Part shown: piece by piece, positions 7,293 through 24,333 of the stretch | How positions within the stretch are numbered: position 1 is the first letter of the stretch | Layout of the letters: each line of letters begins with the position of its first letter | Position numbers and translations under genes: made by a program | Notes under the pieces: generated by a model | Databases searched by the model: none | What the model was told of the DNA's origin: nothing | The model's input: the letters and a program-made list of their open reading frames with translations, nothing else | Assembly (NCBI GenBank): GCA_963676565.1 | Contig: OY781089.1 | Location: 1,120,001 to 1,184,000 of the forward strand | Direction: 5' to 3' | Source of the DNA: Halarcobacter sp. | Lineage (GTDB): Bacteria > Campylobacterota > Campylobacteria > Campylobacterales > Arcobacteraceae | DNA length: 64,000 nucleotides

Positions 7293-9818
7293 ATGAAAAG
7301 TTTTAGTATTAGTACTAAATTAATGTTATTAATTATTGGAAGTTTAGTTTTTATGTCAGTAACTATTTTGTCAATAAGTATAAATGAAAGTATAAAACAC
7401 TCAGAAAAAGAAAAACTTATCCAACTTAAATCAACAACCTATGCAAAAAAACAACATATACAAGAGTATTTTAAAACTATTGAAGGTTTGATTATTTCTA
7501 TTGCAAATTCTGCTTCAACTCAAGAAGCTTTTAATGAGTTTATTAGAGGTTTTTATACTATTTCTAATCAATCAAGTGAAGAAGTTGATATGGCAAAAGT
7601 AAAAAATGAACTTCTAAATCACTATAATAATTTTTATATAAATAAGATAAATTTTGATTTAGCTAATATCCCTTCAAAAAAAGAAACTAGTAAATATTTA
7701 CCAAAAGATGACAATGGAATTTTAGCTCAATATATGTATATTGTAAAAAATGAAGAGAAAATTGGTGAAAAAAATAAATTAACACAATCAAATACTTTTT
7801 TTAATAATTACGCCTTTGCACATACAAGATTTCATGAAACCTTTAATACAATTTTAGAAAAATTTTCACTATATGATATTTTCTTAGTGGATTTAAAAGG
7901 TACAATTATTTACAGTACTTTTAAAGAAAAAGATTTTGCTACAAACTTAAAAACGGGACCTTATTCAAATAGTGGAATTGCAAAAGTAAATGAAAAAGCA
8001 TATAAGTTAAAAAAAGGTGAAGTTGCTTTTAGTGATTTTGAGCCTTATGAACCAAGTTATAACACTCCTGCTTCTTTTTTAGCTATTCCTGTTTTTAATA
8101 ATCAAAATAGAAGAATCGGTAATTTAATTATGCAATTTCCAATTGATGTGATTGATTCAATTATGAATTTTAATGGAAATTATGAAAATGCAGGTTTAGG
8201 TAAAAGTGGTAAAAGTTATTTAGTTGGAAGTGATTATAAAATGAGAAATAATCACAGATATTTAAAAGACCTTGACCATAAACATGTAAAAAGTTCAGGT
8301 ACTAGTATATCTATATATGAGATTAAAACTGAGGCAACAAAACTTGCTTTAGAGAACAAAAGTGGGGCAAAACTAATAAAAGATAATGAAGGTAAAAAAT
8401 ATCTAAGTGCTTATTCTGGACTAAAAGTTTTTGATCAACAATGGGGAATAATCTCTGAAATTGAAAATGAAGAAGCTTTAGCTGATAGTATTAGATTAAA
8501 TATAATTTTAGCTTCAATTTCATTTGCTGTACTTATTTTGATAATTTTTATTTCAATTTTTATTTTAAGAAATTCAATAATCAAACCTATTAAAAATTTT
8601 GAAAATGGTTTAATGTCTTTTTTTAAATATATAAATAATGAAAGTGATGAAGTTATTTATTTAGATGATTCTAAAAGTGATGAAATAGGGGAAATGTCAA
8701 AAGTTGTTAATAAAAATATTAATAAAACAAAAGATGGAATAGAAAAAGATAGAGAACTAATAAATGAAACTGTAAATATATTATCTGAATTTGAAAAAGG
8801 TGATTTATCTCAAAGAATTAAAACTAATCCTTCAAATCCTTCACTGCAAGAACTAAAAACTGTAATAAATAATATGGGGAATAATTTAGAAACAAATATT
8901 GAAAACATCTTAAAAGTTTTAGAAACTTATACTCAATACAACTATTTGGAAAAAGTTGATCCAAAAGATTTAAAAGAACAGCTTTTAAAATTAGCTCAAG
9001 GGGTAAACCTTTTAGGTGATTCTATTACTCAAATGCTTATTGAAAATAAAACAAATGGATTAAAACTTGATGATAGTTCAGATAAATTAATAGAAAGTGT
9101 AGAAATTTTATCAAATAATACAAATTCTGCCGCTGCATCAATTGAACAAACTTCTGCTGCTTTAGAAGAGATAAATGGAAATATAGTTTCAAATAATGAA
9201 AATGTTGAAAAAATGGCTTCTTATTCCCAAGAAGTTAATAGATCTGTTAAAACAGGAGAAGAATTAGCTCAAAAAACAACTCAAGCTATGGATGAGATAA
9301 ATGAACAAGTTAGCGCTATTAATGAGGCTATAAGTGTTATTGATCAAATAGCTTTCCAAACAAATATTCTTTCATTAAATGCTGCAGTAGAAGCTGCAAC
9401 AGCAGGTGAAGCTGGAAAAGGATTTGCTGTTGTTGCCCAAGAAGTTAGAAATTTAGCTGCAAGAAGTGCAGAAGCTGCAAAAGAGATTAAAAATTTAGTT
9501 GAAACTGCAAATATTAGAGCAAATGAAGGGAAGCAAATCTCAGATTCTATGATTGAAGGATATAGTAGTCTTAGTAAAAATATAACTAGTACAATAGAAC
9601 TTATTCACGCTGTATCAACTTCTTCAAAAGAGCAACAAATTGGAATTTCTCAAATAAATGAAAGTGTTGCAAGTTTAGATAAACAAACTCAAGAAAACTC
9701 AAGTATTGCTCAACATACAAATAGTATAGCACTACAAACAGATACAATTTCCAAACAAATTGTTGCTAATGCAGATGAAAAAGAGTTTTTAGGAAAAAAT
9801 GATATTAAGATAAATTAA
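7293..9818 (+). CDS. Methyl-accepting chemotaxis protein with large periplasmic Cache-type sensor
   Basis: Two TM segments, HAMP (DEIGEM) and [34 protein letters not shown]. Confidence 0.95.
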
Positions 9819-10492: not shown

Positions 10493-11128
10493 ATGAAAAA
10501 AGCTATTGTAACTGGTTATTCTTCTGGAATTGGAAAAGCAATTTGTGAAATTTTAGAAGAAAATGATTACAAAGTTTTAAAGTTAAAATCAAGACTTGAA
10601 GATACTAAAGCACTAGAATCAGAAGTGAAAAAGCTATTAAAAGAAAATGAAATTGATTTGTTAGTTAATTGCGCTGGTCTTGGAATATTTAAACCCCATG
10701 AAGAGATTTCAATTCCAAAAATTCAAGAATTAATAAATATAAATCTTACTGCACCAATTATACTTTCAAGTTTACTTTTAAGAACTCTAAAAAAAACAAA
10801 AGGGCATATTATAAATATTGCTTCAATTGAAGCAACAAGGCATTCCAAATTTTCAGCACTTTACACGGCAACAAAATCAGGCCTTAGAAATTTTTCTTTA
10901 ACTTTATTTGAAGAGTTAAGAAAATCAGATGTTAAAGTTACTACAATTAATCCAGACCTTACTAAAACAAACTTTTTTGATGAGTTTAACTTTGAACCTA
11001 GCGAAAATAAAAACGCCCATCTCTTACCTCAAACAATTGCAAATACAGTTTTAGATATTTTAAATTTTGATGGGGTTATCACAGAAATCACTGTTCGTCC
11101 CCAGCGACTAGAGATTAAAAAAAAATAA
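10493..11128 (+). CDS. Short-chain dehydrogenase/reductase
   Basis: TGYSSGIG, NCAG and YTATK motifs. Confidence 0.92.
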   Translation: MKKAIVTGYSSGIGKAICEILEENDYKVLKLKSRLEDTKALESEVKKLLKENEIDLLVNCAGLGIFKPHEEISIPKIQELININLTAPIILSSLLLRTLKKTKGHIINIASIEATRHSKFSALYTATKSGLRNFSLTLFEELRKSDVKVTTINPDLTKTNFFDEFNFEPSENKNAHLLPQTIANTVLDILNFDGVITEITVRPQRLEIKKK

Positions 11129-11191
11129 AAAAAATATTTTAAGTTATACAATTAAAGAATAATTTTTGTGTAATAAATGTACAAGAAATAC

Positions 11192-11220
11192 TTGACAATG
11201 TAAAAAAAAGTAGTTAAGAT
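11192..11220 (+). promoter_or_regulatory. Sigma70 promoter of the ectoine utilisation operon
   Basis: TTGACA (11192-11197), 17-bp spacer, TAAGAT (11215-11220). Confidence 0.75.
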
Positions 11221-11250
11221 TTACCTATATTTTTATAGGAGGCTACAAAG

Positions 11251-11400
11251 ATGTTATTTATTAATTGTTCAAAATTAAAACATTTTATTTGCTTAGCCTT
11301 AATTAAACTCTTTAGAACTTTCAAAATTAATGTAAGACCTGTAAAAGAGATTCAAAACTTACTAATCCAAGAAAAAAGCTTTATTTTAACTGCCATATAG
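11251..11400 (+). CDS. Putative 49-aa leader peptide
   Basis: AGGAGG (11237-11242) lies 8 nt before the ATG. Open frame MLFINCSKLKHFICLALIKLFRTFKINVRPVKEIQNLLIQEKSFILTAI*; below the ORF-track size cutoff. Confidence 0.65.
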   Translation: MLFINCSKLKHFICLALIKLFRTFKINVRPVKEIQNLLIQEKSFILTAI

Positions 11401-11500
11401 ACCCTCGCAATTTATTTAGTGTGTAATAAATTGTAAGTCATTTAAATAATATATTTAAATATTTATTATTTAAATGACTTAGTAGGGTCTTTTTTATTTT
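11399..11500 (+). terminator. Branched terminator-like/attenuator structure in the operon leader
   Basis: Closing stem AGACCCT (11399-11405)/AGGGTCT (11484-11490) followed by TTTTTATTTT. It encloses hairpin 11407-11434 and a perfect 17-bp inverted repeat (11434-11450/11465-11481). Confidence 0.7.
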
Positions 11501-11533
11501 AAAAAAATCAAAAATTATATTAAGGAAAAAATT

Positions 11534-12778
11534 ATGTTAAACGATAAAACAGTATTTGAAGAGAATGAATCAGAAATTAGAGCTTATTGTAGAGCAGTAC
11601 CAACTGTTTTTAAATCATCAAAAAATGCAATTATGATTGACGAAAATGATAAAGAATTTGTAGACTTTTTTGCAGGAGCTGGAGTTTTAAACTTTGGTCA
11701 CAATAATCCAAAAATGAAAGAAGCGGTAATAGAGTTTTTACAAAGGGATGGAGTAGTTCATTCCCTTGATATGTTTACAGATGTTAAAAGAGATTTTATT
11801 TCAACATTTGTTGAAACAGTTTTAAAGCCTAGAGGAATGGGTGATTATAAACTTCAATTTACAGGACCAACAGGAACAAATGCAGTTGAAGCAGCACTTA
11901 AACTTGCTAGAAAAGTAACTGGAAGAACAGAGATTGTAGCTTTCCATAGAGGTTTCCATGGTATGACTTTAGGTTCACTTGCTTGTACTGCAAATAATGC
12001 CTTTAGAAGCTCATCAGGAGTTCCTTTAAATAATGTTATTAGAGGAACATTTAATGACATGGAAGCTCTAGATAGAATGAGAGAACAAATGTTTGATGCA
12101 GGATCTGGGATGTTACCACCAGCTGGATTTATAGTAGAACCAGTACAAGCTGAAGGTGGTGTTAGGCCAGCAACAAAAGAGTGGCTTCAAGCAGTACAAA
12201 AACTTGCACGAGATACTGGAGCATTATTTATCCTTGATAGTATTCAATGTGGTAATGGTAGATGTGGAAGCTATTTCAGTTTTGATGATTTAGATGTTGA
12301 CCCAGATATTAATATTTGTGCAAAAGGTTTAGGTGGATTTGGTACACCAATTGGTATGTTAGTAAATAAACCAGAAATCGACAAAGCTTGGGGACCAGGA
12401 CAACATACTGGTACATTTAGAGGACAAGGTATCTCATTTGTAGCAGGTAAGGTTGCCTTAGAATATTTTAAAGATGAGGAGTTTAATAAAGAGACTATTA
12501 GAAAAGGTAAAGTGATTAGAACCTTACTTGATGAGATGAATGAAAAATATCCTCAAGTTACAGATATTAGACAAAAGGGGATGATGTTAGCAATAAACTT
12601 TGATAATGCGGCAACTGTTAAAGAGATTACTGGAAAATGTTACGAAAATGGTTTAATTATTGGAGCTTGCTCAACGGGTGAGATTATTAAATTTATTCCA
12701 CCTTTAACAATTGAAGATGAAGTTTTAGAAGAGGGACTAAAAAGATTTAAAGCTTCAGTTGAAGCTGTATTAGGTTAA
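11534..12778 (+). CDS. Diaminobutyrate aminotransferase, EctB-like class III PLP enzyme; probably catabolic (DoeD role)
   Basis: FEENESEIRAYCR, DFFAGAGVLNFGHN, GPTGTNAVEAALKLARK and PGQHTGTFRG motifs; first gene of the doeA/tea cluster. Confidence 0.88.
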   Translation: MLNDKTVFEENESEIRAYCRAVPTVFKSSKNAIMIDENDKEFVDFFAGAGVLNFGHNNPKMKEAVIEFLQRDGVVHSLDMFTDVKRDFISTFVETVLKPRGMGDYKLQFTGPTGTNAVEAALKLARKVTGRTEIVAFHRGFHGMTLGSLACTANNAFRSSSGVPLNNVIRGTFNDMEALDRMREQMFDAGSGMLPPAGFIVEPVQAEGGVRPATKEWLQAVQKLARDTGALFILDSIQCGNGRCGSYFSFDDLDVDPDINICAKGLGGFGTPIGMLVNKPEIDKAWGPGQHTGTFRGQGISFVAGKVALEYFKDEEFNKETIRKGKVIRTLLDEMNEKYPQVTDIRQKGMMLAINFDNAATVKEITGKCYENGLIIGACSTGEIIKFIPPLTIEDEVLEEGLKRFKASVEAVLG

Positions 12779-12918
12779 AAGCAACTCGTTGCTTTCTTTA
12801 GAATTTCTCAAAGAGAGTACAAGTACAAGGCTTCTTTAGATGAGATTTATTCTCATTGATAAAAGAAGTTAAAAAATATAGGTCCCTGAAAAAATGGGAC
12901 ATTTTTTAAGGAGAAATT

Positions 12919-14319
12919 ATGGGATATAGCTCAACACATTTTAAATCAATAAATCCATACAATGAAGAGATTGTATGTGAAGTACCAATGCATACAAAAG
13001 AACAGGCAAGAGAAATTATAGAAAATGCTCAAGAAGCATATGTTGGTGAGTGGATTAATACAAGTTATGAACAAAGAGCAAAGCTTTTAAATGCAGTTGC
13101 AAAAGAGATGAAAGATAACCTTGATTATTACGCTCTTCCTATGACTGAAGAGATGGGTAAACCTATTAATGAAGCAAGAGGGGAAGTTAATAAAGCTGCA
13201 TGGGCAGCAGAACACTATGCAAGTTTTGGAGAAGAGTATTTAAAAACTGAATACTTAGAATCAGATGCAACTGAAAGTTATGTTCAGTATTTACCCCTTG
13301 GAGTAACACTTGGAGTGTTACCTTGGAATGCACCTTTTTGGTTAGCTTTTAGATACTTAGCTCCTGCACTTATGTCTGGAAATACTTGTATTATGAAACA
13401 TGACTCACATACTCCATTATGTGCACTTAGAATAGTCGAAGCCTTTACTAAAGCAGGGTTTCCTACAAATGTTGTTCAAAATCTAATGGTAGGACATTCA
13501 TTACTTGAAGATGTAATTAGACATGAAAATGTAATGGGAGTTTCACTTACAGGTTCATCAAAAGCAGGTGCTGCCGTTGGAGCTATTGCTGGAAGTGAAA
13601 TTAAACCAGTTGTTTTAGAACTTGGTGGTAGTGACCCAGCTATTATTTTAGCAGATACCCAAGATTTAGAAAAAGCAGCTGATGTGGTTGTTTTATCAAG
13701 ATATATAAACGCTGGGCAATCTTGTATTGCTGCAAAAAGAATTATCGTTGAAGAGCCAATTTATGAAAAATTTATAGAACTTTTAAAAGAAAGGTTTGAG
13801 AAATTAAAACTTGGTGATCCTAAAGATGAGTCAACAACTATTGGACCAATAGCTAGACGTGAGTTAGTTGAAGAGATGCATGAGCAAGTTGATAGATCAG
13901 TTGCAGCAGGAGCTAGATTAGTTCTTGGTGGTCAAAGATTAGATGATATGCAAGGGTTTTTCTTCCCTGTGACTATTTTAGCTGATGTAGAACCTGGTAT
14001 GGTTGTTTCTTGCCAAGAAACATTTGGACCAATAGCATCCGTTATAAAAGTAATAGATGAAGAGGAAGCTATAAAAATAGCAAATGCAACAGATTATGGT
14101 TTAGGTGGTTCTGTTTGGACAGGGGATGTCGAAAAAGGTAAAAAAATAGCTTCAAGAATTGTAACAGGACAAGTTTCAATTAATGGAATAGTTAAATCAG
14201 ACCCAAGGCTTCCAAGTGGTGGAGTAAAAAAATCTGGACTTGGAAAGGAGTTAGGACCACATGGAATTAGAATGTTTGTAAATACTCAACAAGTTTGGGT
14301 AGGTCCAGTTAAAAGTTAA
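12919..14319 (+). CDS. NAD(P)-dependent aldehyde dehydrogenase, SSADH-like; probable DoeC role
   Basis: PWNAP, LTGS, LELGGSDP, NAGQSCIA and ETFGP motifs. Confidence 0.9.
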   Translation: MGYSSTHFKSINPYNEEIVCEVPMHTKEQAREIIENAQEAYVGEWINTSYEQRAKLLNAVAKEMKDNLDYYALPMTEEMGKPINEARGEVNKAAWAAEHYASFGEEYLKTEYLESDATESYVQYLPLGVTLGVLPWNAPFWLAFRYLAPALMSGNTCIMKHDSHTPLCALRIVEAFTKAGFPTNVVQNLMVGHSLLEDVIRHENVMGVSLTGSSKAGAAVGAIAGSEIKPVVLELGGSDPAIILADTQDLEKAADVVVLSRYINAGQSCIAAKRIIVEEPIYEKFIELLKERFEKLKLGDPKDESTTIGPIARRELVEEMHEQVDRSVAAGARLVLGGQRLDDMQGFFFPVTILADVEPGMVVSCQETFGPIASVIKVIDEEEAIKIANATDYGLGGSVWTGDVEKGKKIASRIVTGQVSINGIVKSDPRLPSGGVKKSGLGKELGPHGIRMFVNTQQVWVGPVKS

Positions 14320-14334
14320 GTTTTGGAGAAGAAA

Positions 14335-15522
14335 ATGAATAAAACAAAACTTGCCTTTACTAAAAAGGAATATATTCAAAGGGTTAAAAGAGTTAAATCT
14401 TTAATGCAACAAAGGCGAATTGACGTCTTAGTTGCAACTGACCCAGGAAACATGAATTGGCTAACTGGTTATGATGGGTGGTCATTTTATGTTCATCAAG
14501 GGGTAATTATCTCATTAGATCATGAAGAACCTATTTGGTTTGGAAGACTTATGGATGTGAATGCAGCATTACTTAGATGTTACATGAGTAAAGAGAATAT
14601 GATTGGTTATCCTGAAATGTATGTACAAAATCTAGATGAGCATCCAATGACATGGATTGGAGAAAATATTTTCAGAAAAAATAAATGGGAAAAATGTGTT
14701 ATTGCAACTGAAAGGGACAATTACTACTATTCTGCAGAAGCTCATTTTAGATTAACTGCAACTTTACCAAATGCAACATTTGTAAATGCCAATAATCTAG
14801 TAAATTGGGTTAGAGGTAAAAAGTCAGCAAAAGAGATTGAGTATATGAAAATTGCTGGAAGAATTACTGAAAAGATTCATCAAAGAGTACTTGATATTGT
14901 AAGACCTGGTATTCCAAAATCCCATGTAGTTTCTCAAATTTATGAAACAGCAATTGCGGGAGTTGATGGTTATGGGGGAGATTATCCTTCAATCGTACCT
15001 CTACTTCCCTCAGGAAAAGAAGCATCAGCATCTCATATTACTTGGGATGATAGCCCTTTTAAAAGAAATGAAGCAACATTTTTTGAGATATCTGGGTGTT
15101 ATAAAAGATACCATGCTCCTATGTCAAGAACAATTTATATGGGAAAACCAAATCAAAAATTTCTTGATGCAGAAAAGGCATTGCAAGAAACAATAGAAGC
15201 AGGACTTGAAATGGCAAAGCCAGGAAATACAACTGCTGATATTGCAAATGCAGCCCAAAAAGTTATGAATAAATACGGTATTGATAGAAACAATGCAAGA
15301 TATGGATATCCAATTGGAGTTAGTTATCCACCCGATTGGGGTGAGCGAACTTGTAGTTTAAGAAGTACAGATTTAACAGTTCTTGAACCGGGTATGACCT
15401 TTCATTTTATGCCAGGGATTTGGCAAGAGGATTGGGGAGTTGAGATTACAGAAAGTATTCATATTACTAAAGATGGGGTAGAAACTTTTTGTAATTTTCC
15501 AAGACAATTATTTCTAAAGTGA
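14335..15522 (+). CDS. doeA: Ectoine hydrolase DoeA/EutD (M24 fold)
   Basis: NMNWLTGYDGWSFYVHQ, YVQ...HPM and GYPIGVSYPPDWGERT are characteristic of EutD/DoeA; GGAG RBS before ATG 14335. Confidence 0.9.
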   Translation: MNKTKLAFTKKEYIQRVKRVKSLMQQRRIDVLVATDPGNMNWLTGYDGWSFYVHQGVIISLDHEEPIWFGRLMDVNAALLRCYMSKENMIGYPEMYVQNLDEHPMTWIGENIFRKNKWEKCVIATERDNYYYSAEAHFRLTATLPNATFVNANNLVNWVRGKKSAKEIEYMKIAGRITEKIHQRVLDIVRPGIPKSHVVSQIYETAIAGVDGYGGDYPSIVPLLPSGKEASASHITWDDSPFKRNEATFFEISGCYKRYHAPMSRTIYMGKPNQKFLDAEKALQETIEAGLEMAKPGNTTADIANAAQKVMNKYGIDRNNARYGYPIGVSYPPDWGERTCSLRSTDLTVLEPGMTFHFMPGIWQEDWGVEITESIHITKDGVETFCNFPRQLFLK

Positions 15523-15613
15523 CACTAAATATAGGGGGTGTATCTATAAAAAAGCTTATATTTAAAACCAGACAGAGAAAAAGCGATAAAACAAACAAAG
15601 AAAGGAATTTGAT

Positions 15614-16621
15614 ATGAAATTATTTAAAGGATTGGTAATAGCAGGTTTAATTACTGCTACAAGTTTGAGTGCAGCAACATGGAAATATGCTTTTGGTGAA
15701 GGTACAAGTGACCCTCAAGGTATTTATGCAACTGCATTTAAGAGTTTTATAGAGGATAATTCAAGAAATAAAATAGAACTATATAAGGTTGGGTCTTTAG
15801 GTGAAGAAACTGACATGATGGAGCAAACAAGAGCTGGTTTACTTCATTTCTTAGGTCAATCAACAGGATATATGGGTGGAACTATTCCTGAGATGGATGT
15901 TTTTACAGTTCCTTATGTGATGCCTACAGATACAAAACAATTGGATTATTTCTTTAAAAACTCAAAAGTAATTAATGAGATGCTTCCAACAATTTTCCAT
16001 AAACATGGATTAGAATTATTATCTATTTTCCCTGAAGGAGAGATGGCTGTTACAACTTTTGAAGAGTTTCATTCACCTGCAGATTTAAAGGGTAAAAAGA
16101 TGAGAGTTATGCCAGGTTCTCCTATTTTGGTTGAAACATATAAAGCTTTTGGAGCATCTCCTCAACCTATGTCATGGGGTGATTTAGTTGGTGCACTTAA
16201 AACAGGAATGGTTGATGGACAAGAAAACCCAACAGTATGGATTGAAGCATATGGTTTAGATGATTTAACAAAAGTTTTAACATATACAGGACATGGACAC
16301 TTTAATGCATCAGTTAGTGCAAATAAAAAGTTTTATGACGGATTATCAAAAAGAGATAAAAAATTAGTTCAAGAAGCTGCTAAGTTTGCCCATAAAACAA
16401 TTTTACAAGAGGCTCAAAAACTTGATGCTTATGGATTAGGAAGAATTGTAAGAACAAATCCTAGTTATAAAATTGTAACTTTAACTGAAGATGAAAGAAA
16501 AGTATTTAAAGAAGAAGCAAAAGCTGTTCAAGAATCATTCGCTTCAAAAAGTGATTCAAATAAAAAAATTATGACTCAAATGATGAAAGATTTAGCCGAG
16601 GCTGAAGCAAATGCTAAATAA
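15614..16621 (+). CDS. teaA: TRAP substrate-binding protein DctP, TeaA/UehA-like (ectoine)
   Basis: Signal peptide; PEGEM, KMRVM and DGQENP motifs; lies next to doeA and teaBCD-like genes. Confidence 0.82.
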   Translation: MKLFKGLVIAGLITATSLSAATWKYAFGEGTSDPQGIYATAFKSFIEDNSRNKIELYKVGSLGEETDMMEQTRAGLLHFLGQSTGYMGGTIPEMDVFTVPYVMPTDTKQLDYFFKNSKVINEMLPTIFHKHGLELLSIFPEGEMAVTTFEEFHSPADLKGKKMRVMPGSPILVETYKAFGASPQPMSWGDLVGALKTGMVDGQENPTVWIEAYGLDDLTKVLTYTGHGHFNASVSANKKFYDGLSKRDKKLVQEAAKFAHKTILQEAQKLDAYGLGRIVRTNPSYKIVTLTEDERKVFKEEAKAVQESFASKSDSNKKIMTQMMKDLAEAEANAK

Positions 16622-16630
16622 TTTTTAATA

Positions 16631-16697
16631 TATAGTAATCCACTTTTAGTGGATTTACTATAGTAGATTACAAAGTGTTGTAACCTACTATAGTAAA
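16631..16697 (+). other. Overlapping alternative hairpins between teaA and teaB
   Basis: Hairpin A (16631-16662) and hairpin B (16654-16697) share TTTACTATA; B ends at the teaB RBS. Confidence 0.6.
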
Positions 16698-16707
16698 AGG
16701 AAGAATT

Positions 16708-17277
16708 ATGGACACTAGTACAAAGAACCCAATACTAAAAGCTTTAGATTTTGTAGACAAAATGCTAAGCAAATTTGAAGGTATTATGCTTGCTTTAGGT
16801 GTAATTGCAATGGCAATAATAACTATACTTTCAGTTATTACAAGATTTATTTTTAATGATGCCTTAACAATAACAGATGAACTAAATATGATTTTTATTG
16901 TAATAGTTACCTTTGCTGGTCTAAGTTACGCAGCTAGAAATGGAAGACATATTAGAATGTCTGCAATATATGATGCTCTTCCAACAAAAATTAGAAAAGT
17001 CTTTATGATATTTATCTCTTTAATCACTTCAATTTTTATGTTCATATTAGCAAAATATTCATATGGATATATAGTTGAGGTATATGAAAGTGGAAGAATA
17101 TTGCCAGCAATTGGAATACCAGTATTTTATGTATATTTATGGGTTCCTATTGGTTTTACTGTTACAGGGCTTCAATATTTTTTTACAGTTATAAAAAATA
17201 TTAGAGAAGATGATGTTTTTCTTTCAACAAAGGTAAGAGATGGATACAGCGATAGTAACAACGATATGGAAGTATAA
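16708..17277 (+). CDS. teaB: TRAP small permease DctQ, TeaB-like
   Basis: Four TM segments; GLSYAARNGRHIRMSAIYD motif. Confidence 0.85.
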   Translation: MDTSTKNPILKALDFVDKMLSKFEGIMLALGVIAMAIITILSVITRFIFNDALTITDELNMIFIVIVTFAGLSYAARNGRHIRMSAIYDALPTKIRKVFMIFISLITSIFMFILAKYSYGYIVEVYESGRILPAIGIPVFYVYLWVPIGFTVTGLQYFFTVIKNIREDDVFLSTKVRDGYSDSNNDMEV

Positions 17278-17286
17278 GGAAGAAAG

Positions 17287-19047
17287 ATGCAAAAGTTTAT
17301 AAAACAATTTTTAATAATTTCTACAATTTTAGTTGGATTTTCCATATCTGCTTTTTCAAAAGAGAATATAATTTTATACTTTGATGAGATTGCTATTGAG
17401 GATAAAGTGAATCTTTCTATTTATGGTTCAGCAGAATCAGAAGATTTTTCTTCCCATAAATGGCAAATTATAAATGTAAAAGTAAAAGGTAGTAAAAATA
17501 AAGAGCTTCTTTTTAGTACTGAGACTGATAAAAAAGGTTTTTGGGAAGTTGAGAATATAGATATCAAAGATTTTAGTGATGGAAAGCTTAATATTGAAGT
17601 TAAAATGATGACAGAAGATGGTGAAGTTTTGGCTTCTTTAGTAGATAAAAACACTATAAAAGATACAAGTTTTAAAATAACTGAATTTCTAAAAAATCAT
17701 TTATCAGCATCAATTTTTTCATTAATGGTGATTTTATTACTACTTGGTTTTCCTATGATGATTCCATTAATTGCAGGAACCTCATTGGGGGTTTTCTTAC
17801 TTTTTGATGGAGATTTTTCAAAAATGGAGTTTCTAATTCAGCAGATGATGGGAGGAATTAGACCAGCTGCATTAATTGCAGTTCCTATGTTTATTCTATC
17901 TGCTGATATTATGACTAGGGGGAAAAGTGCAGAAAAGCTCATTGATTTAGTAATGGCTTTTGTAAGACATATTAAGGGTGGACTTGCAGTTAGTACAGCA
18001 GGAGCTTGTGCTATGTTTGGTGCTGTTTCTGGTTCTACTCAGGCAACTGTTGTTGCAATTGGATCTCCTTTAAGACCAAGACTTAAAAAAGGTGGATATA
18101 AAGAATCATTTATTTTAGCTCTTATAGTAAATTCAAGTGATATCGCCTTTTTAATCCCTCCAAGTATTGGGATGATTATTTATGGAATTGTTGCTAAAAC
18201 ATCTATTCCTGAACTTTTTATTGCAGGGATTGGACCTGGATTATTAATCCTTTTTCTATTTTCAATTTATAGTATTATTTATGCATATAGACATAATATC
18301 CCAACTGAACCAAAAGCTACATGGAAAGAAAGGGGTAGTGCTTTAGTAAATGCCTTATGGCCTTTAGGTTTCCCTGCAATTATTGTTGGGGGTATTTTTG
18401 GAGGAATCTTCTCTCCAACTGAAGCTGCTGCTGTTAGTGTAGCATATGCAATTTTCTTAGAAGGTATTGTTTTTAAAACAATGAAATTAAAAGATTTGTA
18501 TGCAACTGCTAAATCAACTGGATTAGTAACAGCTGTTGTATTTATATTAGTTGGAGCTGGAGCTGGATTTGCATGGGTTTTATCATTTGCTCAAATTCCA
18601 CAACAAATTTTAAGTTCTATTGGTATTACTGAAATGGGACCTTATCAAGTTTTATTTGTAATCTCAATCGCTTTTTTTGTTGGGTGTATGTTTGTTGATC
18701 CAATTGTAGTTATATTAGTTTTAGTTCCTATTTTTGCACCAATTGTAAATTCAGTTGGATTAGATCCAGTTTTAGTGGGAACTATTATTACACTTCAAGT
18801 AGCAATTGGTTCTGCAACTCCACCTTTTGGTTGTGATATTTTTACAGCTATTGCTGTATTTAAAAGACCATATTTAGAAGTAATAAAAGGAACACCACCA
18901 TTTATTTTTATTCTTTTAAGTGTATCTGTTGCTTTAATTTTCTTTCCAGATATTGCACTATTTTTAAGGGATGTTGCCTTTAGAGAATTAAATGTAATCG
19001 ACTATTTCCAAAATCTATTTGGTTTTAGTGCTCAAGTAATAGAATAA
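17287..19047 (+). CDS. teaC: TRAP large permease DctM, TeaC-like, with an extra N-terminal exported domain of about 135 aa
   Basis: The DctM body (LIAVPMFIL, FGAVSGSTQATV, LIPPSIGMI, PTEAAA, TPPFG) starts near residue 140, preceded by a signal peptide and a soluble beta-rich domain. Confidence 0.85.
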   Translation: MQKFIKQFLIISTILVGFSISAFSKENIILYFDEIAIEDKVNLSIYGSAESEDFSSHKWQIINVKVKGSKNKELLFSTETDKKGFWEVENIDIKDFSDGKLNIEVKMMTEDGEVLASLVDKNTIKDTSFKITEFLKNHLSASIFSLMVILLLLGFPMMIPLIAGTSLGVFLLFDGDFSKMEFLIQQMMGGIRPAALIAVPMFILSADIMTRGKSAEKLIDLVMAFVRHIKGGLAVSTAGACAMFGAVSGSTQATVVAIGSPLRPRLKKGGYKESFILALIVNSSDIAFLIPPSIGMIIYGIVAKTSIPELFIAGIGPGLLILFLFSIYSIIYAYRHNIPTEPKATWKERGSALVNALWPLGFPAIIVGGIFGGIFSPTEAAAVSVAYAIFLEGIVFKTMKLKDLYATAKSTGLVTAVVFILVGAGAGFAWVLSFAQIPQQILSSIGITEMGPYQVLFVISIAFFVGCMFVDPIVVILVLVPIFAPIVNSVGLDPVLVGTIITLQVAIGSATPPFGCDIFTAIAVFKRPYLEVIKGTPPFIFILLSVSVALIFFPDIALFLRDVAFRELNVIDYFQNLFGFSAQVIE

Positions 19048-19066
19048 TTTTAAGTAAAAAGGAGAT

Positions 19067-19525
19067 GTGATGTTTAAAAAAATATTAGTACCAACTGATG
19101 GTTCAGAACAAGCAAATAAGGCTTTGGATTTAGCTTGTAAAATGGCCATGGAAAATGATCAAACTCAGATAAATATATTGTCAGTTTTTAGACATCATAG
19201 TTTTACAGAAGCTTCATTAGCAATGCTTCCAAGACAAGTAGATGATGAAGCTGCAAATTTAGATGAGGTTATGAGAACATATGCAAAGGAGTTAGTTGCC
19301 AAATCAAAAGAGCTTGCTATTGAGTATGGATTAGAAAAACATAGGGTAAGAGGTTTTATTAGAATTGGGCAAGTTGCAAAAGAGATTTTAGATTTTATAA
19401 AAGAGGAAGATGTTGATTTAATTATAATTGGGAAACAAGGAAGAGGAGATTTAAGTGGTTATCTTTTAGGTGGAGTTTCCCATAAAGTTACAGGTCTTGC
19501 AAAAATCCCAGTAATGGTTGTATGA
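19067..19525 (+). CDS. teaD: Universal stress protein, TeaD-like
   Basis: FKKILVPTDGS, VFRHHS and G..GRG...GYLLGGVSHKV motifs; directly after teaC. Confidence 0.85.
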   Translation: MMFKKILVPTDGSEQANKALDLACKMAMENDQTQINILSVFRHHSFTEASLAMLPRQVDDEAANLDEVMRTYAKELVAKSKELAIEYGLEKHRVRGFIRIGQVAKEILDFIKEEDVDLIIIGKQGRGDLSGYLLGGVSHKVTGLAKIPVMVV

Positions 19526-19680
19526 TGATTTTATTTGATATTAGAAAAATCAATAGTATCTATTGCTTTAATAGAGTCTATTCAAAGGTAGCTTACTCGT
19601 CCAGATTATAAAAGGATTAAAGTTTTTAATCCTGCAATATTTTATAAATAATTTAAATAAATTCTTAATCGGACAAAAAA

Positions 19681-20841
19681 ATGAAAAATAAAACAATGAA
19701 AGCTATGGTTTTAACAGGCCATGGAGATATAAATAAAATAAAGTACAAAGATGTAGCAATACCAAAACCAAAAAAAGGTGAGGTATTAGTTGAAGTTCAT
19801 GCCACTGCCAAAAATAATACTGATAGAAAAGCTAGAATTGGTGTTTATGGGGTGGATGATAAAAATAAAGATGAAATTACATCCTTTGATATGAGTGGGG
19901 ATAACACTTTTACCTTTCCTAAAATTCAAGGTGCAGATATAGTTGGAACAATTGTAGCAGTTGGTTCAGAAGTTTCAACTAGTAGAATTGGAAAAAAAGG
20001 TTTAATAGATTTTAATATCTATTTAGACCTTGAAAAAAATGATAATTTAAATCTAACTCCTGATTATATAGGACATGGTTGTGATGGAGGCTTTGCTGAA
20101 TATGTAGTAGTTCCCGATGAAAATTTTTATAATATGTCAAATCTTGATATAAGTGATGCCCAACTTGCAAGTTTAGGTATGTGTTCATATCAAACAGGAC
20201 TTCGAATGCTAAATGCTTCAAGGGTAAAAAAAGGAGATTTAGTATTAGTTTCTGGGGCAAGTGGTGGAGTTGGAACTGCTTTAATTCAAATGTGTAGAAT
20301 CTTAGGGGCAATTCCTTATGCCTTAAGTAGTAAAGAAAAAGAGGCGCAACTTCTAAAAATAGGAGCCGAAAAAGTAATTGATAGAGCAGATATAAATAGC
20401 TTAAAACAAAGAGTTTTAGAAGCAACAAATGGAAAAGCTATAGATGCAGTTATGGATATGGTTGGTGGAGAATACACAAATGTTTTCTTAGATTGTATGA
20501 TTACTGATATGAAAAATAAAAGTGACTATCCAAGACTTAGTATTGCAGGAGCTAGTGGAGATAATCTAACACAAATTATGTGGTCAAAGATATATCTATA
20601 TCAAATAGAGATTCATGGAGTTTCCCATGGAACTAGAAATGAAGTAAAACAATTAATGAAATGGATTAGAGAGGGGAAATTAAAACCTATGCTTCATGCC
20701 ACATTTAAGCTTTCTGAGCTTCATAAGTGTGAAGAGTATTTTGCAAATAGGTCAAATAATTATCTTGGAAAAGTAGTAGTAATTCCTGATTCAAAATGGG
20801 ATGAATATGGGAAAGAGTTTGCTCAAAAGGATTCTTTATGA
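19681..20841 (+). CDS. MDR-family NAD(P)-dependent oxidoreductase, apparently zinc-independent
   Basis: NNTD, IQGADIVG, DGGFAEY and SGASGGVG motifs; lacks the catalytic-Zn Cys and the GHE motif. Confidence 0.88.
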   Translation: MKNKTMKAMVLTGHGDINKIKYKDVAIPKPKKGEVLVEVHATAKNNTDRKARIGVYGVDDKNKDEITSFDMSGDNTFTFPKIQGADIVGTIVAVGSEVSTSRIGKKGLIDFNIYLDLEKNDNLNLTPDYIGHGCDGGFAEYVVVPDENFYNMSNLDISDAQLASLGMCSYQTGLRMLNASRVKKGDLVLVSGASGGVGTALIQMCRILGAIPYALSSKEKEAQLLKIGAEKVIDRADINSLKQRVLEATNGKAIDAVMDMVGGEYTNVFLDCMITDMKNKSDYPRLSIAGASGDNLTQIMWSKIYLYQIEIHGVSHGTRNEVKQLMKWIREGKLKPMLHATFKLSELHKCEEYFANRSNNYLGKVVVIPDSKWDEYGKEFAQKDSL

Positions 20842-21881
20842 GTTCAAAAGAGCATAAAATAGGTCTAATTGATACCCACGCTGGAGGTGATGTTAGTAGA
20901 ATAGTTTTTTCTGGAGTTAAAAAACTTCCAGGGAAAACTGTAAGAGAGCAAATGGAATACTTACAAAAAAAGGCAGATGGTTTAAGAAAAACATTACTTT
21001 TTGAGCCATATGGAATCCCTGAGATGTCAATAGATTTAGTTGTTCCAGCTTGCGAAAGCGAAGCAGTTGCAGGATATATTATTATGGAAGTGATGGGATA
21101 TCCTATCTATTCTGGGTCTAATACTTTATGTACAGCAACTGCGGTTATTGAAAAAGGATTAGTAGCTAAAAAAGAGGGAATAACAAATTTTAAACTTGAA
21201 TCTCCTGCAGGTTTAGTTGATATTGAAGCAAATATAGTAAATGGTGTTGTTGAATCTGTAACTTGTCAAGGATTACCAAGTTATATTCATTCTTATAAAC
21301 AGATAATTAATATACCAAATTTGGGAGAAGTTACTTATTCAATAGCCTATAGTGGTGGTTTTTATGTTTTAGTTGAAGCCTCGCAACTTGGTTTTAAATT
21401 AAATAAAAGTGAAGAGGAAGAGTTATCTAAAACTGCATATATGATAATTGAAGAAATTAGAAAAAAACAGGATTTTAAACACTATAGTTTAGGTGATGTG
21501 GGACCTATTCCTTTTTTACATTTTATGGGTGAAGTTACTAAAAAACAGGAAGGTTTATATAGCTCACCTTCAACTACTTATGTACACCCAGGGGTTATTT
21601 GTAGAAGTACAACAGGAACAGGAACTTCAGCTAGACTTGCATATTTATATTATGAAGGAAAGATAAAACAAGGGGATAGATTAGAGACTATTTCCTTAAG
21701 AGATACAAGATTTATTGGAGTTTTTGAAAGTGTTGAAAAACAAAAAAACTACAATGTTATTAACAACAAAATTTCAGGTAAAAGTTATATCATAGGTAAA
21801 CAAGATATTTATATTAATTGTGATGATCCAATGTTAAATCATCTTAATAGTTTGAATGAATTAACAGATCTACTTGAATAA
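20838..21881 (+). CDS. Proline racemase superfamily protein, Ser/Thr active-site type (putative dehydratase)
   Basis: IDTHAGG and LLFEPYG motifs; YSGSN in place of MCGH; CRSTTGTGTSAR in place of DRSPCGTG. Confidence 0.88.
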   Translation: MSSKEHKIGLIDTHAGGDVSRIVFSGVKKLPGKTVREQMEYLQKKADGLRKTLLFEPYGIPEMSIDLVVPACESEAVAGYIIMEVMGYPIYSGSNTLCTATAVIEKGLVAKKEGITNFKLESPAGLVDIEANIVNGVVESVTCQGLPSYIHSYKQIINIPNLGEVTYSIAYSGGFYVLVEASQLGFKLNKSEEEELSKTAYMIIEEIRKKQDFKHYSLGDVGPIPFLHFMGEVTKKQEGLYSSPSTTYVHPGVICRSTTGTGTSARLAYLYYEGKIKQGDRLETISLRDTRFIGVFESVEKQKNYNVINNKISGKSYIIGKQDIYINCDDPMLNHLNSLNELTDLLE

Positions 21882-21899
21882 GATAAAAAGGAGAATTAT

Positions 21900-23060
21900 A
21901 TGTTAAAAAAATTTGAAGAGGTTGTAAACTTTGCAATAGATTTTAGACACAATTTACATAAACACCCAGAATTAAAATGGGAAGAAACTAATACAGCAAA
22001 ATCTATTAGAGATATTTTAGATGAGTATGATATTCCTTATAAAACCTATGCAAATACAGGAACTTGTGGACTTTTAGCACAAGATAAAAAAGGCCCTCAT
22101 ATTGCAATTAGAGGTGATATTGATGCCCTTGCATTAGTAGAAAAAACAGATGTACCATATAAGTCAACAAAAGAGCAATGTATGCATGCTTGTGGGCATG
22201 ATGGTCACACAGCAACACTAATGACGGCTGCCATTTGGTTAAAACAAAATGAACATCTATTAGAAAACCCAGTAACACTTTTATTTCAACCAGCAGAAGA
22301 GGGTGGTCATGGAGCTAAGAAAATGATAGAAGAGGGTTGTTTAGATGGTGTTGATATGATTTTTGGTTGGCATAATTGGCCTGCTATTAAATTTGGTCAA
22401 GCTGTATGTCCCGATGGTACTGTAATGGCTGGAAATGGAACTTTTCATATAAATATAAAAGGAAAGGGTGGACACTCTTCCCAACCTGAATTATGTCATG
22501 ACCCAGTTTTAGCAGCAAGTGCTATGACATTAAATCTCCAACAAATAATAAGTAGACAAGTCTCTCCACAAGATAGTGCAGTTGTTTCAGTAACTTCAAT
22601 TGATGGGAAAAGTGATTTAACTACAATCCCTGATTTTGTAAAACTTGAAGGAAGTATTAGAGTGCCAACTGATGAGTTAAAGAGTTTTGTTTTTAATAAA
22701 ATAGATGAGATTGTAAAAGCAACTGCAAAAACTTATAACGTAGAGGTTGATGTTGAATTAAGAGATAGGTATGGAGCAACAATAAACCACAAAACCCAAG
22801 CGGAAATGGTTAGAGAAGAGTTAAAAAATCAATTGGGTGAAAATTGGGAAAGTGATATTCCAACACCTATTATGGCAAGTGAAGATTTTAGCTATTATTT
22901 AAACACAATACCTGGAGCTTTTGCACTTATTGGAAGTGATGATGGGGTTGAAAAACATCAAAAAGCTTGTCATAATGTTCATTATGATTTTAATGATAAA
23001 TTAATATCTCCAGTTAGTAAAACTTTAATGAGATTAGCTGGTTACAAAGGAGAGTTTTAG
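21900..23060 (+). CDS. M20D amidohydrolase; putative N-acetyl-diaminobutyrate deacetylase role
   Basis: RGDIDAL, MHACGHDGH, FQPAEEG, GKGGH and SEDFS motifs. Confidence 0.9.
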   Translation: MLKKFEEVVNFAIDFRHNLHKHPELKWEETNTAKSIRDILDEYDIPYKTYANTGTCGLLAQDKKGPHIAIRGDIDALALVEKTDVPYKSTKEQCMHACGHDGHTATLMTAAIWLKQNEHLLENPVTLLFQPAEEGGHGAKKMIEEGCLDGVDMIFGWHNWPAIKFGQAVCPDGTVMAGNGTFHINIKGKGGHSSQPELCHDPVLAASAMTLNLQQIISRQVSPQDSAVVSVTSIDGKSDLTTIPDFVKLEGSIRVPTDELKSFVFNKIDEIVKATAKTYNVEVDVELRDRYGATINHKTQAEMVREELKNQLGENWESDIPTPIMASEDFSYYLNTIPGAFALIGSDDGVEKHQKACHNVHYDFNDKLISPVSKTLMRLAGYKGEF

Positions 23061-23069
23061 GAGATACAA

Positions 23070-23540
23070 TTAGGCAATTGGCCTATTGTATCTCATAAAA
23101 TATATAGATGGAATTGCAAGTCCAAAGCCAATTCCCCCTAAAATAGTAATTGTTTTTAAACCATTTTCAACAAAAATAGTAATAAGTTCAGGGGTAACTC
23201 CATGGGCACTCATATTTATAAGATTTATAACAGCATTAAAAGCATATGTTCCGGGAATCAAAGGTATAATTGAAGCAATCGTATAAACAGGTCTTGGAAT
23301 AATATATTTTCTTGACCAATATAGAGCAACTAAACCAACTATTGTAGAAGCTAAAAATGTTGCAAGTTCAATACTAAAATTTATATCCATTAAAATAGTT
23401 CTTGAAGTATATGCAATTGCTCCACCAAATCCACAATATATAAGTGTATGTTTAGGAACATTAAAAACCATACCAAAGCCAATAGCTGGAATGGCAGCAA
23501 AAATTGCATTTATAATATAATTAATTAATTCAGTACCCAT
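23070..23540 (-). CDS. ThrE_2/YjjB-like exporter subunit
   Basis: GFGMVFNVP and IIPLIPG motifs; paired with the YjjP-like gene. Confidence 0.88.
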   Translation of the reverse strand: MGTELINYIINAIFAAIPAIGFGMVFNVPKHTLIYCGFGGAIAYTSRTILMDINFSIELATFLASTIVGLVALYWSRKYIIPRPVYTIASIIPLIPGTYAFNAVINLINMSAHGVTPELITIFVENGLKTITILGGIGFGLAIPSIYFMRYNRPIA

Positions 23541-23541
23541 A

Positions 23542-24333
23542 TTACCAACCTTTTAAGTCTAAAATTACAAAGGCAAAAACAATCCCAATTGCAGTTGCTA
23601 CTGTTAATAAAACAGCTTGCATCCAACGACCCCAACCCATGGCTAGATAACCTTTTACAGCATCTAAAACAGAATTGATAAAAGGGAAACCAGGAGCAAG
23701 TAAAATTACACTTGATGATAAAGCAATATCTATCTTATCACTTAATTCATATATATGGGCAAGTCCAGAGATTATTGTTGCCACAAAAGCAGTTGCAGCA
23801 AAGGTTATAATCATCACAAACTTTCTTTTTGCTAATTCTTGTCTAGTAAACATAGCTACACTTGATGCAACAAAAGTGACAAAAAATGAGATTAAATCTG
23901 CTCCGTTTAAGTATGCAAAAGAGGCACATGATAAACCAATCATAAAAACTACAAGCCATCTATTATAATAGTTTGCTTGAATCTCTTTCATTGTTTTTAA
24001 TACAAAACTTACATCTTTTTTTTCTTTTTCTGTTTGATGACACATCCTTTGAACATCACAAACAATAGACATGTTTATTGGTTTATGGTATGCCCTTCTT
24101 GTTGTTGTAACAGAGTGTGTTTGATTGTTTGTTAGTGTTGTTAAAACAATAGCCGAAGGGATTAGAGAAAGTTCAACGGAATCAACACCTAAAGCCTTTC
24201 CTAATCTTTGAGCAGTTTGTTCTATAAGTCTACTTTCTGCACCATATTCAAGCATTAATACAGCAGCTTTAATTACAGCCCTTGTAATCTTTGTTTGTTC
24301 TTCGTAAGTTAGTTGTGTTTGTATCTCTTCCAT
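23542..24333 (-). CDS. ThrE/YjjP-like exporter subunit (threonine/succinate exporter family)
   Basis: LEYGAESRLIE, INMSIV and LAPGFPFINSVLD motifs. Confidence 0.88.
   Translation of the reverse strand: MEEIQTQLTYEEQTKITRAVIKAAVLMLEYGAESRLIEQTAQRLGKALGVDSVELSLIPSAIVLTTLTNNQTHSVTTTRRAYHKPINMSIVCDVQRMCHQTEKEKKDVSFVLKTMKEIQANYYNRWLVVFMIGLSCASFAYLNGADLISFFVTFVASSVAMFTRQELAKRKFVMIITFAATAFVATIISGLAHIYELSDKIDIALSSSVILLAPGFPFINSVLDAVKGYLAMGWGRWMQAVLLTVATAIGIVFAFVILDLKGW

Follow-up and report, generated by a model that had tools for sequence, protein, structure and literature searches.

What does the ten-gene operon in this stretch of Halarcobacter DNA do? The stretch analysed, here called the window, is 64,000 nucleotides long, and at positions 11534-23060 it holds what we read as an operon for the uptake and catabolism of ectoines, built from a four-enzyme core and two add-ons: a TeaABCD transporter and a module of two genes, encoding a medium-chain dehydrogenase/reductase (MDR) and a proline-racemase-family (PRS) protein, that would remove the hydroxyl group of hydroxyectoine. 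We put the probability of this reading as a whole at about 0.55. The core is ordinary; the MDR-PRS module is the new part and a testable candidate for an unsolved dehydroxylation step, and most likely it allows the use of hydroxyectoine by a route not described before. Ten open reading frames, all on the plus strand and with intergenic distances of -4 to 155 nt, fill the region exactly as the original prediction had placed them, and their families, assigned by Pfam and NCBIfam profile scans of the window proteins, agree with it as well:

11534..12778, plus strand: doeD, L-2,4-diaminobutyrate (DABA) transaminase, a class-III aminotransferase (NF006733, 550 bits, cut-off 438; Aminotran_3, 267 bits)
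12919..14319, plus strand: doeC/ssd-type aldehyde dehydrogenase (Aldedh, 464.6 bits)
14323..15522, plus strand: doeA/eutD, predicted ectoine hydrolase, M24 (TIGR02993, 587.2 bits; similarity to solved DoeA)
15614..16621, plus strand: teaA, solute-binding protein of a tripartite ATP-independent periplasmic (TRAP) transporter, ectoine/hydroxyectoine type (DctP; best PDB matches 3gyy/2vpn and 3fxb)
16708..17277, plus strand: teaB, TRAP small membrane subunit (DctQ; PF04290, 91.3 bits)
17287..19047, plus strand: teaC, TRAP large membrane subunit (DctM; PF06808, 354 bits, residues 146-555 of 586)
19067..19525, plus strand: teaD, universal stress protein (PF00582, 97.5 bits)
19681..20841, plus strand: predicted MDR-superfamily NAD(P)H reductase with no catalytic-zinc motif (ADH_N and ADH_zinc_N)
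20838..21881, plus strand: PRS protein of the dehydratase type (Ser92/Thr259), proposed 5-hydroxyectoine dehydratase (PF05544, 277.8 bits)
21900..23060, plus strand: doeB2, predicted M20 N-alpha-acetyl-L-2,4-diaminobutyrate deacetylase (NF038260)

That this is an ectoine catabolic operon with DoeB2 as its deacetylase is highly probable, and family membership supports, with high confidence, the predicted assignment of the four core enzymes. DoeA, whose gene is the sole copy in the genome, aligns over its full length with the solved ectoine hydrolase DoeA of Halomonas (6twk, 6twj; 546 bits), the next PDB match scoring 83. It stays below the 613-bit cut-off of the equivalog model TIGR02993, as do its relatives: in our survey of 184 Arcobacteraceae genomes the 24 DoeA proteins range from 571 to 594 bits, and the cut-off is not exceeded in any of the 184. 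On the DoeA_2 model the window protein reaches just 210.6 bits. In the 24 doeA clusters of the family doeD is always found (24/24), and the aldehyde dehydrogenase gene always adjoins doeD and doeA. The best NCBIfam match of this dehydrogenase is a succinic-semialdehyde dehydrogenase model (463.6 bits, under the cut-off of 730), and we predict that it oxidises aspartate semialdehyde to aspartate. Beside doeD, two related loci carry divergent genes for aspartate ammonia-lyase and an asparaginase-domain protein (L109:15601-17504, L120:13700-15621), neighbours that would be expected if the pathway of the cluster ends in aspartate.

The M20 protein passes the curated model NF038260, the NCBIfam equivalog 'N(2)-acetyl-L-2,4-diaminobutanoate deacetylase DoeB2', with 620.6 bits against a cut-off of 550; its residues 6-381 cover positions 2-377 of the 378-position profile, and in this full-length match we found no difference from the family. 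The swap of AstE-type DoeB for DoeB2 is thus already catalogued by NCBI. The original prediction had seen in the M20 hydrolase an unrecognised substitute, and half of this stands: the enzyme predicted for the deacetylase step is indeed a different one, but it is recognisable. Its closest solved proteins are N-acyl-amino-acid amidohydrolases (1xmb, 245 bits; 1ysj, 210 bits). doeB2 belongs to the core of all complete clusters found in the family: 23 of the 24 Arcobacteraceae loci link it to doeA, and the remaining one is truncated by a contig end. In the open-access literature (PMC, bioRxiv) we found no paper that uses the name DoeB2 and nothing relevant that joins ectoine with M20 or amidohydrolase; in the consulted part of a 2026 survey of EutD distribution in Applied and Environmental Microbiology (AEM), the role of an M20 'abgB' in Gram-positive clusters is given as unknown. 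In four of seven related loci (L109:3071-3616(-), L111:2534-3094(-), L120:4117-4620(-), L124:16058-16618(+)), doeB2 is followed in the same orientation by a gene for a small YgjV-family inner-membrane protein, possibly an eleventh gene; in the window no YgjV-family gene follows doeB2.

The transporter points to ectoines as well. Against the PDB, TeaA scores 293-297 bits with 3gyy/2vpn and 292 with 3fxb, the next match reaching 131. The search output titles 3gyy/2vpn only 'periplasmic substrate binding protein'; we take 3gyy/2vpn to be TeaA and 3fxb to be UehA. E29, R164, W188, N205, W209 and F230 of the window protein align with chain positions E9, R144, W167, N184, W188 and F209 of the solved protein, which we take to be the TeaA ligand contacts of Kuhlmann et al. 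2008, and F66 of the structure aligns with Y86. The universal stress protein gene, too, stands where it might be expected: usp/teaD holds the same position in known TRAP-type ectoine clusters, according to the part of the Czech 2018 review that we consulted. TeaC carries an N-terminal extension of about 145 residues (17287-17725), which opens with a hydrophobic helix and then runs on for some 105 residues that match no Pfam family; the N-terminal 153 residues, folded without an alignment, gave a mean pLDDT of 43, too low to use. Full-length alignments show the extension in 5 of the 11 other ten-gene clusters, and in three more it is shorter or split; in L111, L113 and L115, all from one genus, the teaC match spans about 420-450 residues and begins past the extension.

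The MDR-PRS pair is an optional, separable two-gene insert between teaD and doeB2. A survey of doeA neighbourhoods, proposed as a check by the original prediction, covered 24 Arcobacteraceae loci, all 23 besides that of the window being inspected, and found doeB2 in 23 and the pair in 12. PRS thus occurs in 12 of the 184 genomes and DoeA in 24, and all 12 PRS genomes have DoeA and carry the ten genes in one cluster. The gene order is that of the window in ten of them (the window and nine others), and in the other two it is teaABCD-MDR-PRS-doeB2-doeD-doeC-doeA; the teaD-MDR-PRS-doeB2 block, present in both orders, therefore survives rearrangement. Among the 12 DoeA genomes without the pair, eight have doeD, doeC, doeA and doeB2 only, three have the core with teaABC (one of them with teaD) and one is cut by a contig end. 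In one genus the pair is present in five genomes and not in a sixth, where the gap between teaD and doeB2 is 33 nt. Since clusters occur without the pair, the four core enzymes make up a complete and independently selectable route that leads from ectoine to aspartate, and the pair must therefore feed something extra into the core. In Arcobacteraceae it occurs only together with transporter genes. The two genes had been taken for independent replacements; they are instead one module, and related Arcobacteraceae with and without it make a clean natural experiment. We found no donor of the whole cluster: six gammaproteobacterial loci with an Arcobacter-like doeA (72-77% identity) lack the other nine genes within about 10 kb.

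What could the two proteins catalyse? In the MDR protein the motifs ATAKNNTD and IQGAD are invariant and stand, as we take it, where zinc alcohol dehydrogenases have their Cys/His ligands; GASGGVG is present, and zinc-less MDRs with this motif typically belong to the superfamily branch that reduces enes and imines. Its closest PDB entry is 4j6f (280 bits; next 81). The start of the PRS gene overlaps the MDR stop by 4 nt, and translation of the two is probably coupled. In the PRS protein SGSN and TTGTG are found where racemases carry their two catalytic cysteines, and Ser92 and Thr259, invariant in 23/23 clade members, align with the Ser and Thr of 4k7g. This is a dehydratase-type pair, the second Cys being replaced by Thr and the first residue being Ser (dehydratases have Cys or Ser there); the consulted part of eLife 2014;3:e03275 describes 4k7g as a trans-3-hydroxyproline (t3Hyp) dehydratase with Ser90/Thr256. 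The protein stays under the cut-off of every named NCBIfam model, the best being a t3Hyp dehydratase model (235.4 vs 550 bits) and a second t3Hyp dehydratase (t3HypD) model giving 149.9 vs 540; judged by these scores, by its Cys255 and by its MDR partner, the clade is not a known dehydratase family. The window protein is 66% identical to Marinobacter A1U2K1, which the same part of eLife 2014;3:e03275 counts among its assayed proteins and which still has no name beyond 'Protein Maqu_2141'. A complex prediction for MDR and PRS (score 0.00, mark 0.32) speaks neither for nor against binding.

On this basis we propose the following route, in which we infer every catalytic step as well as what the pair acts on. 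Ectoines would enter through the TeaABC-type TRAP importer, accompanied by TeaD. DoeA would open the ectoine ring to N-alpha-acetyl-diaminobutyrate (ADABA), DoeB2 would strip the acetyl group to leave diaminobutyrate, DoeD would transaminate this to aspartate semialdehyde and the aldehyde dehydrogenase would oxidise the product to aspartate. Ahead of this core, PRS would abstract the alpha-proton of (4S,5S)-5-hydroxyectoine and eliminate its beta-hydroxyl to give 2-methyl-1,6-dihydropyrimidine-4-carboxylate, which the zinc-less MDR would reduce with NAD(P)H to ectoine. By our own reasoning from the structures, 5-hydroxyectoine (4S,5S) may be regarded as a ring-expanded analogue of trans-3-hydroxy-L-proline (2S,3S), in which a six-membered amidine ring presents the imino nitrogen, alpha-carboxylate and beta-hydroxyl in the same layout. 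The proposed intermediate is the EutB product once proposed, as reported in the consulted part of the Czech 2018 review; the pair would perform the chemistry once suggested for EutB/EutC, but with unrelated folds and without pyridoxal phosphate (PLP). The dehydroxylation step is known to exist and has no assigned enzyme, and the activities of EutABC are called unknown in the part of Hermann et al. 2021 that we consulted. To regard the pair as a functional stand-in for EutABC is a reasonable inference. That it serves the hydroxyectoine branch we consider rather probable; that hydroxyectoine itself, and not a ring-opened hydroxy intermediate, is its substrate is a more tentative proposal, for which the odds are somewhat below even.

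Outside Arcobacteraceae, a scan of one genome per species found PRS relatives in 442 species, and our locus figures rest on the best 80 of these. Homologues with 62-67% identity occur widely among Halomonas, Vreelandella, Marinobacter, Marinospirillum, Alcanivorax kin and Ectothiorhodospiraceae. In all 80 loci an MDR-like sequence lies directly 5' of PRS on the same strand, near full length in 77 and fragmentary in 3, with a 1.9-kb insertion between the two in one, and a Tsukamurella plasmid carries the pair with overlapping genes. The pair is thus a self-contained two-gene module in three phyla. Among 44 proteins flanking eight gammaproteobacterial loci, no neighbour recurs but DJ-1/PfpI (twice), and no OCD, MLD2, DAAO or DHDPS genes stand near the pair save for one DAO-domain protein in L017.

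Where, then, does the pair live? In 301 genomes of the order that holds Marinobacter, 15 of them PRS-positive and 286 PRS-negative, the genes for ectoine synthesis and breakdown are markedly enriched with PRS: EctC in 15/15 against 111/286, EctD in 13/15 against 39/286, DoeA in 6/15 against 9/286, and EctD or DoeA in 15/15 against 42/286. Within EctC-positive genomes alone, EctD accompanies PRS in 13/15 and is found without it in 39/111 (Fisher p = 1.8e-4, a value overstated because these genomes are related, being mostly Marinobacter and Halomonas kin). The direction is clear despite this kinship: the pair belongs to genomes that can make hydroxyectoine or consume ectoines. Its unlinked position in most Gammaproteobacteria and the carriers without DoeA would be compatible with a recycling of self-made hydroxyectoine to ectoine, without being evidence of it. 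As a general statement, that the pair is a widespread PLP-independent dehydratase-reductase converting 5-hydroxyectoine to ectoine, in 442 species including many Halomonas, Vreelandella and Marinobacter, 12 Arcobacteraceae and one actinobacterium, is possible, though we would not bet on it.

The MDR has a history of its own in ectoine clusters. It had been regarded as foreign to the canonical systems, a view that the alphaproteobacteria contradict: in seven of the eight plasmid records examined (S. meliloti, S. medicae, R. johnstonii, R. gallicum, R. phaseoli, Phyllobacterium, where it is truncated, and Paracoccus yeei), an orthologue with 40-52% identity directly follows ssd-atf, alongside EutABC. 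In Paracoccus yeei it ends an ehuD-eutABC-doeAB-ssd-atf array, and in six of the seven ssd-atf-MDR records DoeA lies within about 12 kb of it. The rhizobial 'adh', counted among cluster genes of undefined role in the consulted part of the Czech 2018 review, is such an orthologue (40-42% identity; 4j6f, 280 bits); that part of the review also describes the S. meliloti aminotransferase, oxidoreductase and SSADH (succinic-semialdehyde dehydrogenase) genes as ectoine-inducible. In a tree of 28 hand-chosen, not exhaustive, rows, a 25-row subfamily separates with 100/100 support from enolase-linked paralogues, and within it the Paracoccus eut-cluster gene is sister (100/100) to a clade of Arcobacteraceae and gammaproteobacterial genes, the former being monophyletic (99/99) and sister to the latter with weaker support (94/90). 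On plasmids of Leisingera and Phaeobacter, remoter paralogues (35-36% identity) overlap the enolase-superfamily gene that follows them (L095:10001-12216, L142:14001-16195), the Phaeobacter pair lying near genes for cis-3-hydroxy-L-proline dehydratase, OCD, aconitase-X, TRAP and usp. Here, too, a reductase seems to be paired with a proton-abstracting enzyme.

Several observations weigh against a dedicated hydroxyectoine function, in addition to the kinship of the genomes in our co-occurrence sample. The alphaproteobacterial MDR occurs with EutABC and without PRS, and it is grouped with ssd-atf rather than eutABC, a position beside ssd-atf that makes a role in the lower pathway possible; in R. 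phaseoli the MDR gene is accompanied by ssd-atf alone, and Nitratireductor carries an MDR orthologue with no ectoine genes nearby. In one of the 80 loci, that of a Halarcobacter metagenome-assembled genome, the pair sits in the ten-gene operon, and in the other 79 the flanks are unrelated and variable. DoeA is missing in 9 of the 15 PRS-positive genomes of the order sample. The PRS clade has an invariant Cys255 in place of the DRSP-motif Asp found in 6r76, 4k7g and 4k8l, so the t3HypD mechanism cannot be copied directly, and a lack of t3HypD or proline-type activity in A1U2K1 is presumed from its name only. Proline derivatives are, to our knowledge, the substrates of every PRS enzyme characterised so far. 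The window genome has no EctD, so any hydroxyectoine must come from outside. Finally, Hermann et al. 2021 report, in the part consulted, that hydroxyectoine itself is opened and deacetylated by R. pomeroyi EutD and EutE, and that hydroxy-DABA is quickly converted to DABA; the hydroxyl may therefore go after ring opening.

This last possibility is the chief rival, unlikely in our judgement yet the best placed of the alternatives. The pair would then remove the hydroxyl after ring opening: DoeA and DoeB2 would give hydroxy-alpha-ADABA and 3-hydroxy-DABA, PRS would dehydrate one of these, and ADABA or DABA would arise as MDR reduces the imine or enamine so formed. The optional-insert and co-occurrence data fit it equally well, and the alphaproteobacterial MDR does sit with ssd-atf, which act on DABA. 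Against it, the PRS members described in the consulted part of eLife 2014;3:e03275 act on a cyclic imino acid, and in 9 of the 15 sampled genomes the pair stands alone without a DoeA to open the ring.

A poorer prospect is that the pair is an ordinary module converting trans-3-hydroxy-L-proline, or another hydroxy-imino-acid, to proline with a new pyrroline-2-carboxylate reductase, and merely rides in the operon. Its Ser/Thr pair is the same as that of the t3Hyp dehydratase 4k7g, the best NCBIfam match of PRS is a t3Hyp dehydratase model, the remoter MDR paralogues pair with enolase-superfamily genes, the Phaeobacter one beside cis-3-hydroxyproline dehydratase and OCD, and the gammaproteobacterial pair has no ectoine neighbours. 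However, PRS scores far under the model cut-offs (235 vs 550, 150 vs 540), the assayed orthologue A1U2K1 bears no function name, and no hydroxyproline genes flank the pair in eight annotated loci. In Arcobacteraceae the pair is found solely inside ectoine clusters (12/12) and stays by teaD and doeB2 through rearrangement, and this explanation would leave the enrichment of EctD and DoeA and the MDR of alphaproteobacterial ectoine clusters unexplained.

Slightly less probable again is a place for MDR in the common lower pathway, where it might reduce an aldehyde, imine or enamine derived from diaminobutyrate or aspartate semialdehyde, with PRS as an accessory epimerase or isomerase and neither protein specific to hydroxyectoine. 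MDR orthologues do accompany ssd-atf and not eutABC in seven of eight records, one of them without eut genes within 14 kb, and the S. meliloti orthologue is induced by ectoine itself (Czech 2018, in the part consulted). MDR is, however, dispensable, as eight Arcobacteraceae genomes with the bare core and three with core and transporter attest; the Ser/Thr PRS lacks the two-base set-up of racemases (eLife 2014;3:e03275, part consulted); and the coupling of MDR to PRS in all of the best 80 loci (from 442 species) argues for two consecutive steps on one substrate. That the pair runs backwards, as an oxygen-independent synthesis of hydroxyectoine, we rejected as the main reading: the operon is one of uptake and catabolism, and desaturation with NAD+ would be unfavourable.

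The original prediction had also reported that no EutE/DoeB, EutA, EutB, EutC or EnuR gene is recognisable in the region, and had asked whether canonical eutE or eutBC genes might stand elsewhere in the genome. The absences hold genome-wide, in profile searches and with an EnuR query: in the 3.34-Mb genome no DoeB/EutE (TIGR02994) exceeds its cut-off, the best match scoring 101.2 bits against 402.7 and lying at 2.72 Mb next to a RimK ligase gene, and none of the EutABC models (TIGR02990, TIGR02991, TIGR02992) gives a convincing hit. For EutC there is no match; for EutA there is none either, with control genomes equally blank, so that this model search is unvalidated and its absence the weakest of the set; for EutB the best match has 268.7 bits against 413 and is, by TIGR01127 (505 bits, cut-off 379), IlvA. 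A Rhizobium johnstonii EnuR query brought only a 22.5-bit match. We therefore rejected the notion that EutB-like and EutE-like genes elsewhere carry the flux, the nearest candidates being IlvA and a RimK-associated AstE-family protein. The genome holds the ectoine synthase EctC (G000:C1:2398486-2398875, 185.8 bits) and no EctD (best match 47.8 bits); with EctC present and EctD absent, the organism probably makes ectoine, which it would also degrade, and not hydroxyectoine.

How does the operon compare with what is known? With Halomonas elongata (doeAB-doeX-doeCD and teaABCD) it shares the hydrolase, the transaminase/dehydrogenase logic and a TRAP transporter with a universal stress protein; unlike there, the genes form one operon, M20 DoeB2 stands in for AstE/AspA-type DoeB, the MDR-PRS pair is added, and AsnC/DoeX, EnuR and eutB/eutC are missing. 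The Ruegeria ueh-usp-eut cluster likewise unites transporter, usp and catabolic genes in one unit; compared with it and the rhizobial clusters, EutA, EutB, EutC, EutE, AsnC and EnuR are absent here, and MDR is coupled to a PRS gene that those clusters lack. With t3HypD (B9K4G4/4k7g) the PRS protein shares its fold, its Ser/Thr pair and, as proposed, a two-step logic in which a cyclic imino acid with a beta-hydroxyl is first dehydrated and the product then reduced with NAD(P)H, but it scores below both model cut-offs, has Cys for the DRSP Asp and stands in an ectoine, not a hydroxyproline, context; the reductase partner, too, is an MDR and not an OCD or MLD2 family member. Of the claim that this is a variant pathway by non-orthologous replacement, the replaced deacetylase stands, and the MDR-PRS pair may stand in for EutABC.

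The operon extends ectoine catabolism to the Campylobacterota, as the original prediction held. This phylum is not named in the 2026 survey: 'campylobacter', 'arcobacter' and 'epsilon' are absent from its main text. In the literature we searched we found no mention of ectoine catabolism in Arcobacteraceae, two Arcobacter genomics papers speaking only of synthesis, and in the open-access literature (PMC, bioRxiv) none tying ectoine to proline racemase or hydroxyectoine to hydroxyproline dehydratase. Ectoine and hydroxyectoine rank among the major osmolytes, feed marine life and are sold commercially. The operon places an orphan branch of the proline racemase superfamily, and the MDR of undefined role in Sinorhizobium clusters, in a first functional context. 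If our proposal is true, it gives a function to the orphan PRS cluster of Maqu_2141 and to the ectoine-inducible Sinorhizobium 'adh'; many hydroxyectoine producers could then recycle the solute without degrading it, and EutABC-less consumers could still eat hydroxyectoine. The candidate pair is built on folds other than those of EutB and EutC, and an enzyme pair that turns hydroxyectoine into ectoine would matter for the engineering of producer strains such as Halomonas.

The window lies at 1.12-1.18 Mb of a complete genome of 3.34 Mb (99.97% completeness). Both the operon as a whole and its single proteins have their nearest named relatives among Halarcobacter, Arcobacteraceae and Campylobacterota records. 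G+C is about 28% in the AT-rich window and 30-35% in the operon region; window positions 12000-24000 stand at 0.30-0.35 against 0.25-0.29 around them, that is 3-8 points higher, which is compatible with acquisition from outside. Two further features frame the ten genes:

11129..11533, no strand assigned: 405-nt intergenic spacer directly 5' of the operon, the presumed promoter/control region
23071..23085, no strand assigned: palindromic hairpin between doeB2 and a convergent ThrE-type gene, a possible bidirectional terminator

The ten genes are presumably co-transcribed. Promoter-like hexamers in the spacer (11192-11220, 10/12; 11441-11469, 9/12) are possibilities only, the 62 such sites in the region not exceeding shuffled sequence (58.9 +/- 8.3); the terminator scan found the hairpin on both strands, and its seven hits region-wide are likewise not above shuffles (5.6 +/- 2.5). 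An Rfam scan of 10500-24000 at E <= 0.1 gave no match. No regulator gene adjoins the operon in our family scan of the window and flank comparison, and none is conserved beside the Arcobacteraceae clusters among 25 flanking proteins of seven loci. Four oligo-dT RNA runs labelled as related species gave two partial reads each in three and none in one, all in the AT-rich upstream spacer and uninformative on expression. At 7293-9818, 1.7 kb 5' of the operon, lies a gene for a methyl-accepting chemotaxis protein whose dCache_1-like sensor domain scores 43.4 bits, just below the Pfam cut-off of 45.

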